Shown in pieces: positions 19,199-32,129 of a stretch of 64,000 nucleotides of DNA. Made by a program: the position numbers and the translations under genes. Each line of letters starts with the position of its first letter. Positions within the stretch are counted from its first letter, which is position 1. The stretch is from an uncultured delta proteobacterium (GTDB taxonomy: Bacteria; Desulfobacterota; RBG-13-43-22), in the NCBI GenBank assembly GCA_963843145.1, contig CAWJJC010000028.1, positions 320,001 through 384,000 of the forward strand, read 5' to 3'. The notes beneath the pieces are model-generated. The model was given only the letters and a program-made list of their open reading frames with translations. It was not told where the DNA came from and ran no database searches.

Positions 19199-19590
19199 GT
19201 ATGGTGTCCCCGGAATTCAAAGCGATAAGAGACTAGCCGCCGGGCCGAATGTCGAACCTGGGCAAATATGGAACCCTGAAGGCCGTTCAAACAGATGGCC
19301 TTTTCCTTTGGCGTGGATCGGCCAACGAAGGCAAAACAAGGGTAGGGAAGGAATTGTCCCAGTCTGCCGGATTCCTCCATCTCCACAAACCTCGGTGGCG
19401 ATGTACACCTACAAGTATTGGACTTTGGCTTGTCCTTTTATTAGCACTTACCCTTTGAAATGTTGCATAAAGAAGGCAGAGCCAAATGATCTTTTTTGGC
19501 CCTGCCTTTGCCGCCCATGTGTCAAAAATTTAACCGAAACCAACTGCCAGCAGGACATTTCCCTAGCCTTAAAAATTCCAGCATCTCGTT

Positions 19591-27330: not shown

Positions 27331-27645
27331 GGATATTTACTCAAAAATTTTTTGTAATTTATTGTAGCAGTTAATGCCTAACAACTTTTAGAAAAAATGT
27401 CAATAAAATTATGATTTAAAACTTTCAGGGGATAACCCAGAAGGTAGCTGCCGTGGTTTTAAATCTTCCACTATTAAGTTAAGGAATAGCGTTCGAAATC
27501 TGGCAGTTTTGGCAAATCTTCAAAAAGTGGATTACAGGAAGAAGCCCGTTGCAGGGTTTACATTGCCCTACCCAACCCTTTATATTTTTATATTCGGTGT
27601 TCGGCAGGTCCTACCGGATTTTATTTTCTGGTCATGTGGTTCGGA

Positions 27646-29257: not shown

Positions 29258-29618
29258 CTAAATTTCCTTAAGGGCCATGGCCGTATTTTTTGTATTCTGG
29301 AGAATGGCCGCATCCAAAAGCTTATCTTTATCCTTTACCGTTCTTAGCCGGTGCGATTCTTTTTACAATAGCCCCAATATTACCTTCCGGTTTTCCGCCG
29401 TCAACGGTCGCTTTTACCGCCCCGCAGGATTGATGTCCCAATATCAGGACCAAAGGAACACCAAGATGTTCCACGGCATACTCGACGCTTCCAAGCTCGA
29501 TGGGATCGGCAATATTGCCGGCTACCTGGATCACAAAAATATCGCCCAGTCCCTGGTCAAAAACGTGCTCCGGTGGAACCCGGGAATCGGAACAGCTTAA
29601 GACTACCGCAAAAGGATG
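29258..29618 (-). pseudogene. Beta-carbonic anhydrase fragment, N-terminally truncated and frameshifted
   Basis: [44 protein letters not shown]; the frame continues as ..DAAILQN.. after a shift near 29340. Confidence 0.85.
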
Positions 29619-29838
29619 AACAGAATTATAAACCATTTTGAAAATAGTAAATAGGGTGAATCTGACCCTAGGGGCAATGGTTCGGAGGGAGGAAAGTAAC
29701 AATTTTCATTTGAAATGTTCCCAATTAGCCCATTCTTAAGAAACAACAGTTCAGGAAGCTATACGTACTAAAATCTGATTTTCTTATTGAAGTTAATAGG
29801 TTACATGTTGTTCAAAATCTCATAGTTTGGTTATTTCG

Positions 29839-30732
29839 TCAAGCATTATTTGGGTGGCCAGCCGTTTGTTGCCTAATCACCTCCATGGCTTTGAAGTAGT
29901 CTCGCTGCACCTTAAGGTTTGAAATCCGGCAGTACCGTTGTGTGGTTTTCACATGGCTATGACCCAGGAGATCTTGAATGGTGGAAAGATCGGCATCGGC
30001 ATTGAGCAGTTGGGTGGCCATGGTATGGCGAAGATGATGACAGGACACCTTGAGCTTGGCTTGGCGAGCATAAGTTTCCATGCGCCGCTGAATGCCGCGG
30101 ATGGAGATGGGCTGCCCCTGACAAGGTTTCTTTTCCGCCAGAAAGATCTTTCTGGCCTTGGATGGCGGCCTCACCGTCAGATAGGCGGCCAGGGCCTGAA
30201 GGGCATCATGGCTCATATAGACGACCCGATCTTTTCCGCCCTTACCGTCTTCCACCAGGATAGTCCTGCGTTTGACGTCTATGACCCCGATCGTTAGCTG
30301 GGCGACTTCTTCCACCCGTAACCCGCAACGGAGCATGAGCATGAACATGGCCCGGTCACGGGCGCTCTTGATGACCTTAAAGAAGGTCTCCACCTGATCA
30401 TCTCTCAGGTGTCGGGGAAGGGGCTGGGACATCTTCTGGAGATGAGTCTTCTTGATGGGATTGGTGATAATCACCCCTTCCTCATCCCGCAGGTAATGGT
30501 AGAACTGGCGAATACCGTTCAAGTGGCAGTTGACCGTCTTGGGCGCCAGCCTCTTCCTCATGAGATGCTCGATGTAGCGTGACACGGTTACGTGGGTCAC
30601 GGCCTCCACCGGCACATCCAGCCAGATGATAAAGTGTTTAATGAGGTTCAGATAGTTCTTCACGGCATGGGGCGAACAGTTCCGCCGCTTTAAAAATCTT
30701 TGCCAGTTCAGGATCGCATCGGTCATCGCCAT
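29839..30732 (-). CDS. Tyrosine recombinase (XerC/D-like)
   Basis: RCGLRVEE, GKGGKDR, HHLRH, LGHS, TQRY. Confidence 0.95.
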   Translation of the reverse strand: MAMTDAILNWQRFLKRRNCSPHAVKNYLNLIKHFIIWLDVPVEAVTHVTVSRYIEHLMRKRLAPKTVNCHLNGIRQFYHYLRDEEGVIITNPIKKTHLQKMSQPLPRHLRDDQVETFFKVIKSARDRAMFMLMLRCGLRVEEVAQLTIGVIDVKRRTILVEDGKGGKDRVVYMSHDALQALAAYLTVRPPSKARKIFLAEKKPCQGQPISIRGIQRRMETYARQAKLKVSCHHLRHTMATQLLNADADLSTIQDLLGHSHVKTTQRYCRISNLKVQRDYFKAMEVIRQQTAGHPNNA

Positions 30733-31777
30733 TACTGTCCCTCCTCTCTATTTTCGACATGGCTCTAAAATACTCAGCCTCCCGGGTCTTATCAGTCAGC
30801 CGGGCATACCGCCGGGTTTCCTCGATGCTCCGGTGCCCCAACAAAACTTGGAGACACTCCAGACGCAGGCCGGCGTTGAGAAACTCCGTGGCAAAGGTAT
30901 GGCGAAGGGTATGCAGGGAATATCCCTTGTCCGCCAATCCCGCCTTCTCCAGATAGCGCATAAAAATGGTCCGGGCGGTGCTGTAGGACATGGTCTCTGT
31001 CCGGGTATAGATCAGGTACTCCTCACCGGGATTCCTCTTCTTCAACCACCTCCGCAGAGCCAGGACCGCATCGTCGCTGAGATAGACCACCCTCCCCAGG
31101 CGGTTCTTCTCGCCTTCATAAATCTCTATCTTCCGTTCCTTAAGATGGACGTCGGCCATCTTGGTATTAAGCAGTTCTCCGATCCGCAGGCCCGTCCTCA
31201 ACAAGACCAGGATCATGGCCCGGTCACGAATATCGTCAATGACCGAAAGCAGCTTCCGCAGATCGTCAGGATCCATGGCCCGCGGCAGCCGCTCCGGTAA
31301 TTGCAACCGTATCCTCCTGCTGAAGAGTTCCGCGGAAACCCTTCCTTCTTCTAACAGGTAACGGAGAAAGGCTTGCACACTCACCAGCCTGGTCCTGATC
31401 GTTGTAATCTTAATCCCCCGGTCCTGCTCCCGCTCGATAAAGGTTTCCACATCCCTTCGGGTAATGGCTTCCAGGGATGTCCTGCCGCTCTCCCGTATCA
31501 GGCCCAGAAAAAGAATGATCGCCCCAAAACGGCTGTACAAAGTTCTCGGTCTGCGGTTGCCATACGTCAGGTGACGAAGATAGGCTTCCACCTGATCCTT
31601 CCCCGGAAGGTCCATCCGGACCAGCCGTTTTAAAATCTGGCCCAGCGCTTCTAAACAGTCTTTAGAATTTATTCTAAATCGTAATCGCGTTTGATAATAA
31701 TGGGGAGCGTTAACGGCGGGAATCTTAAAATCAGAAGATTTACTCGTCTGCTGTAGATCACTATGTCCGTTCATCAT
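30638..31777 (-). CDS. Tyrosine recombinase (XerC/D-like)
   Basis: RTGLRIGE, GEKNR, HTLRH, LGHR, TRRY. Confidence 0.95.
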   Translation of the reverse strand: MMNGHSDLQQTSKSSDFKIPAVNAPHYYQTRLRFRINSKDCLEALGQILKRLVRMDLPGKDQVEAYLRHLTYGNRRPRTLYSRFGAIILFLGLIRESGRTSLEAITRRDVETFIEREQDRGIKITTIRTRLVSVQAFLRYLLEEGRVSAELFSRRIRLQLPERLPRAMDPDDLRKLLSVIDDIRDRAMILVLLRTGLRIGELLNTKMADVHLKERKIEIYEGEKNRLGRVVYLSDDAVLALRRWLKKRNPGEEYLIYTRTETMSYSTARTIFMRYLEKAGLADKGYSLHTLRHTFATEFLNAGLRLECLQVLLGHRSIEETRRYARLTDKTREAEYFRAMSKIERRDSNGDDRCDPELAKIFKAAELFAPCREELSEPH

Positions 31778-32129
31778 CTCTGTCTCCTTTTCTTAAATCA
31801 ATAAGAAAATCAGACAGATGATGACTAATAAACTCTTATCTGTCAAACATCAGCTTGGTACGTATAGCAGGAAGAAGCCGAGCATGTTGATATTCCACTA
31901 AAACCCATCCTTTTTACTAAATTTACCTCTTTCTACAAGGGGAAGCAGGGTATCCGGATTTTCTTTTTTGACGAAGTCTCCCAGAAACGTTACTATTAAA
32001 CCATAATGTTATGGGCCAACTTTCACAAAAAAGAGATATTAACGGTTTCAAAATAATTGGTAACCTTCAAAAGTTGAGGCAATGAACCCTTTGCTGGGAA
32101 CTTGTCATAAAGGGATCGAAGGAGACGAT

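Follow-up and report, generated by a model that had tools for sequence, protein, structure and literature searches.

A minimal, probably autonomous site-specific integrative element made of two overlapping tyrosine recombinase genes in Syntrophales-type bacteria

Organization of the element and its copies in the host genome

The DNA stretch analysed here (the window: 64,000 nucleotides, C28:320001-384000 of the host assembly G000) comes from an uncultured delta proteobacterium, and it contains a 2109-bp unit (29759-31867) whose gene content consists of two overlapping tyrosine recombinase genes only. The host assembly comprises 32 contigs and is 98% complete, with 6.9% contamination; most of the genomes compared in this work are metagenome-assembled genomes (MAGs) with some contamination. 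The features of this unit, hereafter the element, are as follows (window positions; ORF, open reading frame; aa, amino acids).

29752-29758, + strand: left core copy CAGGAAG (sequence inspection), a putative crossover (overlap) region
29759-29771, + strand: left terminal inverted repeat CTATACGTACTAA, kept in relatives
29774-29790, + strand: left subterminal 17-bp repeat TCTGATTTTCTTATTGA, kept in relatives, a putative accessory binding site
29839-30732, - strand: ORF2, 297 aa, Xer-like tyrosine recombinase (ORF list, Pfam, NCBIfam)
30638-31777, - strand: ORF1, 379 aa, Xer-like tyrosine recombinase (ORF list, Pfam, NCBIfam)
31798-31814, + strand: right subterminal 17-bp repeat, inverted copy, just downstream of the ORF1 promoter-like site
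31818-31846, - strand: promoter-like TTGACA-17-CATCAT upstream of ORF1 (consensus match only; -35 hexamer conserved in relatives)
31855-31867, + strand: right terminal inverted repeat TTGGTACGTATAG, inverse of the left end with 1 mismatch in 13
31868-31874, + strand: right core copy CAGGAAG (sequence inspection)

The similarity between the two termini is confined to these 13 bp with one mismatch, and is only loose further inward. The 17-bp inverted pair is perfect and asymmetrically placed (15 bp from the left end and 53 bp from the right end), and an equivalent asymmetric subterminal pair is present in a subfamily of relatives at 55% protein identity. The start of ORF2 overlaps the end of ORF1 by 95 nt, and a GGAGG ribosome-binding site is located 8 nt before the ORF2 ATG. 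The non-coding ends of the element measure only 80 and 90 bp, which leaves no space for cargo. The position of the right 17-bp repeat, just downstream of the promoter-like site, suggests that the recombinase genes may be autoregulated. These data bear out the anatomy given in the original prediction, made from the window sequence alone, which had reported exact ends with CAGGAAG on both sides, a perfect 17-bp inverted motif at these offsets, two overlapping recombinase genes retaining the R..HxxR..H..Y residues, and neither cargo nor a third gene.

The host genome holds three copies of the element, in the window, at C13:72774-74873 (99.7% identical to the window copy over 2109 aligned columns, and running off the contig end) and at C10:93033-95141 (95% identical), and CAGGAAG abuts their ends wherever a flank is visible. 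On the right side the similarity among the copies stops 9 bp past the element, the three right flanks being unrelated. On the left side the window and C10 flanks can still be aligned (83% over ~90 nt), so that the left flank was suspected to be a repeat. From the element outward, identity drops from 95-99.7% inside to 71-86% in the left-flanking repeat (the module described below) and to none on the right, the breaks falling exactly at the ends. A genome-wide scan for CAGGAAG plus 10 nt, paired with the inverted 10 nt plus CAGGAAG, returned as zero-mismatch pairs the two complete element copies only, and the idea that other elements of this genome share the layout was rejected. The recurrence of the ends with their flanking 7-mer, in three copies here and more than 20 elsewhere, is far beyond chance. 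Judging from the two copies at 99.7% identity, the element has been recently active.

The two recombinases

Both proteins possess the Pfam catalytic domain PF00589 (E 3e-37 and 1e-39) and SAM-like N-terminal core-binding domains. Their catalytic residues, read from the sequence and from alignments to XerA/XerD, are R198, H289, R292, H315 and Y324 in ORF1, and R139, H232, R235, H258 and Y267 in ORF2; the catalytic Arg, His-x-x-Arg, His and Tyr are invariant columns in the family alignment. Such a combination of a SAM-like core-binding domain with a catalytic R-K-H-R-H/W-Y domain is that of the simple Xer-like group, and the nearest solved structures are XerA (4A8E) and XerD (1A0P). ORF1 has one SAM-like domain in Pfam (residues 64-145), preceded by 63 poorly conserved residues, and also a C-terminal tail. 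Because its first ~45 residues are weakly conserved and missing in the distant subfamily, ORF1 is regarded as devoid of a second core-binding domain. Purifying selection acts on both genes: dN/dS (the ratio of non-synonymous to synonymous substitution rates) lies at 0.14-0.24 in ORF1 and at 0.08-0.16 in ORF2, in 10/10 pairwise comparisons.

The nearest NCBIfam families are XerC, XerA and XerD, and the XerC/XerD scores (204/174 bits for ORF2 and 140/128 bits for ORF1) are below the cut-offs of 335/330. The element genes are unlike chromosomal XerC/XerD in these scores below the equivalog cut-offs, and also in being multi-copy, in lying within a bounded repeat and in their patchy distribution. 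Ten frames of >=150 aa in the host genome match ORF1 or ORF2 at E<1e-5, namely the three element pairs, two copies of a distant single recombinase and two other Xer-like genes, which are candidates for the housekeeping XerC/D.

ORF1 and ORF2 share 29% identity (117 bits), a closer resemblance than to any of the Rit and Tnp proteins tested (<=103 bits), in a small comparison set composed of RitA/B/C from three pHG1 trios and one Rhodococcus Tn554-like TnpA/TnpB pair; their identity to the latter pair is 23-31%. A maximum-likelihood tree with 28 sequences groups the ORF1 proteins in one 100/100 clade and the ORF2 proteins in another, and these two clades unite with the distant single recombinase at 91/88, outside the RitA, RitB and RitC clades; the deep branches are weak and the Rit references are those of the pHG1 trios only. 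In a plasmid collection, the matches listed were all <32% identical, and every best match in the tally was <60%. The best-covering ORF1 matches (H1, H2) are on Rhodococcus plasmids, and the Rhodococcus match that was inspected (H9) is a Tn554-like TnpA at 26-31% identity. No relatives were found in the viral contigs searched. No third recombinase gene was present in the seven relatives' loci inspected, down to 55% identity, nor in 19 bounded copies of 2.1-2.25 kb.

Relatives of the element and the 7-bp core

The same gene pair and termini occur in at least ten other Syntrophales-type genomes. A search with the ORF1 protein in 40 relatives detected the pair in G002 (96%), G001 (92%, interrupted, with one stop), G019, G018 and G020 (three copies), and distant pairs at 55-57% identity in G001, G009 and G012. 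All complete copies of G002, G018, G019 and G020 (6/6) have the same termini with CAGGAAG on both sides, and ten different right flanks were counted overall. In a one-genome-per-species collection, 30 loci were returned, all from records entitled Syntrophales, Smithellaceae, Syntrophaceae or unclassified deltaproteobacterial MAGs, and 29 were scanned (L110, a 17-residue match, was left out). Inverted ends and a flanking 7-mer repeat bound the element in 19 of these 29 loci, with lengths of 2109-2248 bp. The 7-mer is CTTCCTG (the complement of CAGGAAG), perfect on both sides, in 16 of the 19, and CAAATAC on both sides in two others, both from one MAG. As to the ten unbounded loci, most are cut by contig ends; the others include the interrupted G001 copy, an unrelated 29% match and two real exceptions, which are dealt with below. 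The 55% subfamily (L059 in G012 and L045 in G009) measures 2046-2050 bp, shares the termini of the main subfamily (CTATACGTAAC...) and is flanked by CACCTAC on both sides.

The ends of the family are conserved throughout, and the 7-mer is constant within a lineage and has switched as a block between lineages at least twice. We therefore regard the 7-mer as an element-carried crossover (overlap) core, and not as a target duplication. The element displays the classical traits of an insertion sequence, i.e. it is short, multi-copy, limited to mobility genes and ended by terminal inverted repeats; a target-site duplication of variable sequence, as expected for such elements, was not observed, the flanking 7-mer being constant within each subfamily.

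At least 120 clusters sharing >=70% identity with ORF1 came out of a search of 5.8 billion proteins, the most specific name among them being 'integrase/recombinase XerD'. Most of them are on contigs of 1.3-3 kb, as expected because the repeat breaks assemblies, and one Smithellaceae assembly has five element loci on its contigs.

Several remnants and altered copies were also observed. The interrupted G001 copy (G001:C13:109307-115011, 92-95%) is split by a ~3.5-kb insertion near element position 807 and carries a stop codon, and G002:C16:9593-9744 (L073) is a solo remnant made of a 150-bp right end with its core. At C5:97496-97515 of the host genome, a 13-bp end-like sequence (..GTTACGTATAA) abuts a CACCTAC module, which suggests that the CACCTAC subfamily may formerly have been present there. 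Lastly, a metagenome contig (L151, 1819-1916, between rplA and rplJ) has two tandem 42-bp palindromes with 11-bp termini as in the element (CTATACGTACC...GGTACGTATAG), and CCAAGTG follows each of them. Located in an unrelated organism, they could be miniature derivatives or else att-like sites.

The target module and its unoccupied copies

The left flank of the element belongs to a family of repeated modules, of which two classes, termed R and L, occur in the window as follows.

29690-29758, + strand: class-R target module at the element (nhmmer family; position weight matrix, PWM, scan; sequence-only model R1)
29698-29719, + strand: palindromic motif of that module, AACAATTTTCATTTGAAATGTT, followed by a ~33-nt spacer and the core
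27473-27541, + strand: second class-R module, unoccupied, with its core at 27535-27541 followed by AAGCCC (nhmmer, R1 model)
19406-19464, + strand: class-L module, CACCTAC at 19406-19412, then exactly 30 nt, then the motif at 19443-19464 (PWM scan); with the module ending at 27541, it brackets an 8-kb operon segment

The module at the element is the distal part of a ~180-nt repeat (29578-29758) with a sigma70-like promoter facing left, found in about 20 copies in the host genome (nhmmer). The part common to all copies is a ~65-nt module comprising the palindromic motif (consensus AACGATT..CGTT.GAAATCT), ~33 nt ending in ...AAAAACAAGACTT and CAGGAAG. PWM scanning of the host genome gave 25 places with CTTCCTG at 15-50 nt from the motif (vs 1 for a control word), the class-R count being about 19-25 depending on the scan, and 17 places with CACCTAC, exactly 30 nt and the motif (vs 0 for the control). 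In both classes the motif side of the core starts with a similar AAGTCTT-like stretch. Segments of 0.4-8 kb tend to be enclosed by one module of each class, in an L...R arrangement that has the cores on the outside. These segments carry operons, read from the sigma70-like promoter of the R-side repeat, which encode STAND/cyclase/TPR regulators and secreted repeat proteins.

Copies of the main subfamily are always found immediately outward of a CAGGAAG core, and those of the 55% subfamily immediately outward of a CACCTAC core, with the ORF2-proximal end toward the module in both; insertion thus has one orientation relative to the module. The sequence-only covariance model R1, run over 41 genomes, found the module in 19 of 20 same-family members (2-108 copies each), and 0-3 weak matches per genome in 21 genomes outside the family. 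In the module-rich genomes G010 (108), G014 (71) and G005 (25), neither ORF1 (at E<=1e-20) nor the single recombinase was found. As modules abound where the recombinases were not found, the module is a feature of the host or its family that the element exploits, and not a part of the element.

Several modules of the host genome are unoccupied, with one CAGGAAG followed by unrelated DNA. At C28:494506-494572, what comes after the single CAGGAAG is paralogous to the right flank of the element in the window (88% over 66 nt), so that this site amounts to an empty version of the window insertion site, paralogous and not orthologous to it. Unoccupied CACCTAC-plus-motif sites also occur in G012 and G001. 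The core is hence arranged as in att-type sites, identical at both junctions of the element and single at unoccupied (paralogous) sites.

As to the function of the module, it could be a regulator site, a boundary site or what remains of a cassette system. An omega-RNA, riboswitch or small RNA in the left-flank repeat was discarded (Rfam empty; no compensating hairpin changes among variants, by eye), as was a sigma-54 promoter, with which the GG/GC spacing does not fit. A likeness between the subterminal 17-bp repeats and the module motif was dropped too, the former being below the PWM threshold in the genome scan.

Other sequences were noticed around modules. Directly downstream of the promoter-like region of the module in the window lies a truncated beta-carbonic anhydrase ORF (29328-29702, - strand; Pfam profile 1-96 of 156). 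Three ~1.1-kb segments of the host genome (C2:126253-127400, C2:117656-118805 and C20:538966-540114; one of them degraded) contain the distant single tyrosine recombinase (279 aa) and sit exactly between the CAGGAAG core of an R module and the CACCTAC core of an L module; in G012 (L140), the single recombinase also adjoins an R module. Many of the secreted repeat proteins encoded beside modules in the host genome (e.g. C10:91747-92640, C12:9391-11160, C12:11834-14149 and C2:116993-117532) have the conserved C-terminal tail ...(Y/F)LPL(I/V)(L/V/S/Q)(K/R), which may be an unrecognised sorting signal. Short repeats resembling miniature inverted-repeat transposable elements occur in the host genome (~190 bp, 85-92% identity, C2:118925-119116 and about 15 other places) and in G018/G019 (~130 bp, >40 places). 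In the latter two genomes (G018:C32 and G019:C5; L043 and L042), the locus is orthologous through the element and the flank on the module side, but past the other core the two sequences are unrelated, and part of the G018 flank lies ~20 kb away, inverted, in G019. This difference points to a rearrangement with its breakpoint at the core.

Several statements of the original prediction can be revisited with these data. It had read CAGGAAG as a 7-bp duplicated target site, which does not hold: the 7-mer is the same in 16 of the 19 bounded copies elsewhere and in all copies here, and it changes as a block between subfamilies. Its description as an insertion-sequence-like transposon stands for a discrete, multi-copy, cargo-free entity with exact ends, and fails for the target duplication, in place of which there is a fixed core with site- and orientation-specific insertion. 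The perfect repeats had been taken as a sign of recent insertion; the 7-mer says nothing on recency, for which the 99.7% identity of two copies is better evidence. Other copies were suggested as a check and do exist, three in this genome and more than 20 elsewhere; their 7-mer turned out to be fixed, not variable, within a subfamily; and the relatives keep the same termini, the lack of which in homologous pairs would have spoken against the proposal. Empty sites with a single CAGGAAG, also proposed as a check, were found at paralogous modules, and no orthologous one was found in G001-G003. Excision as a circle, which the prediction deemed probable, stays a proposal here, as no circle junction was seen in the contigs scanned. 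That the left flank is a repeated module, which defines the target, had been overlooked.

Proposed mechanism and alternative explanations

Tyrosine recombinases use overlap regions of 6-8 bp that must match between the partner sites. From the data above, we propose with good though not full confidence that the locus is an autonomous minimal site-specific integrative element, whose only genes encode two paralogous Xer-like tyrosine recombinases. Both recombinases would be transcribed from the promoter inside the right end. Recombination of attL with attR at the directly repeated cores would free a circle of 2109 bp plus one core, and leave a single core at the donor site. On the circle, the 13-bp inverted arms would flank the core, to form a lox/FRT-like 13-7-13 site, and the circle would re-integrate by strand exchange at any chromosomal module edge with an identical 7-bp core. 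Insertion would occur in one orientation because the 7-bp core is not palindromic. In this scheme the core would have to match between partners without being read by the proteins; since it has switched (CAGGAAG, CAAATAC, CACCTAC) while the ends stayed, it behaves as an overlap region that is matched and not protein-read.

The circle, the cut-and-paste movement, the need for both proteins and their roles are what we infer from this arrangement. In the putative circle site the arms on either side of the core hardly differ, whereas the target has a module-side arm that is unrelated to both. A plausible division of labour, which is our best guess, is that one recombinase acts on the element arms and the other on the module-side arm or the subterminal 17-bp repeats.

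A number of observations weigh against this proposal. The near-identical arms of the putative circle site give no obvious reason for two recombinases. No joint corresponding to a circle junction or a precise-excision product was found in the Logan contigs of four runs, the fragments of which end inside the element, apart from one that extends beyond the right end for 9 bp before diverging; and the junction pattern had one match only in metagenome contigs, an unrelated pair of 42-bp palindromes in a ribosomal-protein operon. An orthologous empty site was not found, the flanks not being conserved in three congeneric genomes (G001-G003) and those of G018/G019 being uninformative, as they are confounded by the 130-bp repeat and a rearrangement. 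The R1 model adjoins the element in 9 of 19 bounded copies of other genomes (E<=0.01); the link to the module is firm only in the closer genomes, the flanks of distant Smithellaceae copies showing a weak motif by eye. Three loci depart from the rule of identical cores: L091 (agreement at 6/7 positions), L105 (perfect ends flanked by CCATCTG/AAAGCTG) and L107 (no flanking repeat, and a degraded gene with stop codons).

An extended and rather speculative version is that of a re-targetable two-protein integrase system, in which one recombinase would read the element arms and the other the host module (through the core-adjacent arm of the latter or through a protein that sits on the palindrome), the site being set by the exchangeable 7-bp core of the element. 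The operon-bracketing modules and the resident single recombinase would then be part of a wider Syntrophales cassette or boundary-recombination system, loosely like integron attC sites or dif modules.

Alternatively, the donor copy might stay in place, so that no empty site is formed. This explanation agrees with the copy number, which exceeds one in many genomes (three here, five loci in the Smithellaceae assembly), with the fact that no excision product was seen, and with what is reported of multi-recombinase tyrosine elements in PMC10214605, where the donor copy is kept. We regard it as improbable, as the SEs and Tn554 leave different 6-bp junction sequences (one a footprint, the other a fingerprint), whereas the 7-mers are identical here (16+2+2 bounded copies), as expected for conservative recombination at one core, and as the element has no Tfp, Srap or TnpC gene. 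Still less likely in our opinion is a host-serving system that acts on the modules, for instance to invert or shuffle operons, the ends of the element being incidental att sites. The bracketing of operons by L...R pairs, the single recombinase between R and L cores in three places here and beside an R module in G012, and the G018/G019 loci, where the flank differs from the core outward on one side only, are all in keeping with it; yet modules are abundant in genomes where neither type of recombinase was found, the cores at either end of a bracketed segment differ, so that a tyrosine recombinase would not be expected to join them, and the multi-copy and patchy distribution is that of a selfish element.

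Two further explanations address the origin of the copies and of the gene pair. Homologous exchange could in principle be mediated by the left flank, since it always belongs to a repeat family, but copying through duplication of a host segment or recombination between modules is very hard to reconcile with an identity that breaks exactly at the element ends, and with exact boundaries that are shared by more than 20 unrelated loci of other genomes. As RITs and Tn554 are likewise multi-recombinase tyrosine elements, and the best-covering plasmid matches of ORF1 are on Rhodococcus plasmids, with a Tn554-like TnpA as another Rhodococcus match, the element might be a deletion derivative of a three-gene RIT or a Tn554-type transposon. 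This we consider the least credible of all, in agreement with the original prediction, which had set the element apart from both: the inspected relatives have no third recombinase, the two proteins resemble each other more than any Rit or Tnp protein tested and stand outside the Rit clades of the tree (pHG1 trios), ORF2 has 297 aa and not ~630 aa, and there is no TnpC.

Comparison with known systems

According to PMC10214605 (2023), prokaryotic tyrosine-recombinase transposons fall into five groups: ICE/IME, SEs, GInts, RITs and Tn554-related elements. A RIT consists of three genes (RitA of ~410 aa with two core-binding domains, RitB and RitC) with 4-8-bp overlaps, and has 34-bp inverted repeats (PMC3414803, PMC10214605 and PMC8138268), which PMC10214605 describes as terminal. 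The element is like RITs in being small, in containing overlapping tyrosine recombinase genes only and in having terminal inverted repeats, and the mobility of RITs is itself inferred from distribution. It differs from them by its two genes, 95-nt overlap, 13-bp ends, fixed flanking core, defined target, and proteins outside the Rit clades.

With Tn554 and actinobacterial Tn554-like transposons, the element shares two tyrosine recombinases and a site-specific oriented insertion. Tn554 encodes TnpA, a large TnpB (637 aa in the Rhodococcus example), TnpC and cargo, and has different 6-bp junction sequences at its two ends (PMC10214605), whereas the element encodes two small proteins and no third one, carries no cargo, and has identical 7-bp junctions. 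SEs and GInts have four core genes (intA, tfp, intB, srap / ginABCD) and cargo, measure 7-14 kb or more, occur in Gamma-/Betaproteobacteria, and show a 6-bp footprint behaviour and no empty site (PMC10214605). They resemble the element in their imperfect inverted ends of 13-19 bp, in the short spacer that separates these ends once circular, and in target specificity, and differ in that the element has two supported ORFs only and no Tfp/GinC or Srap/GinD. The junction hexamer difference typical of Tn554 and SEs is absent here: the 7-mers are identical in the 16 CTTCCTG, the two CAAATAC and the two CACCTAC copies, and in the two complete copies of the host genome.

The predicted circle junction, with its 13-bp inverted arms around a 7-bp asymmetric spacer, recalls Cre/loxP, Flp/FRT and XerCD/dif, and Xer also in the use of two paralogous recombinases on one site and in the simple Xer-like proteins; these are single-site resolution or inversion systems, and not self-mobile elements. 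REP-targeting insertion sequences and dif modules/IMEX also land on abundant repeats of the host or on Xer-type sites, with DDE or IS110-type transposases or a borrowed host XerCD; in contrast, the element brings its own recombinase pair and its own core. BIM elements have one recombinase and an unrelated protein, where the element has two recombinases.

The element departs from every multi-recombinase group in the features that define it (number and type of genes, length of repeats, footprint behaviour), and it fits only with the general class of site-specific integrative elements having simple Xer-like recombinases. No description of a minimal two-recombinase element was found in full-text searches of the literature or in passages of PMC3414803, PMC8138268, PMC10214605 and PMC13685792; such pairs may be listed in supplementary tables, which these searches did not cover. 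The element is a new variant among tyrosine-recombinase mobile elements, widespread in Syntrophales-type bacteria.

Significance

This element would add a sixth and smallest architecture to the prokaryotic tyrosine-recombinase mobile elements (ICE/IME, SE, GInt, RIT and Tn554), with a compactness of two ~300-380-aa proteins and a ~33-bp site. A two-protein integrase with a swappable core could serve as a tool. Metagenomes of anoxic sediment and soil are rich in members of this family, which are annotated only as 'XerC/XerD integrase'. This annotation inflates the Xer counts of MAGs, and the repeat breaks assemblies. The combination of conserved arms, a switching 7-bp core and a strict orientation makes it a clean natural system to understand why such elements have more than one recombinase, and how their targets are chosen.

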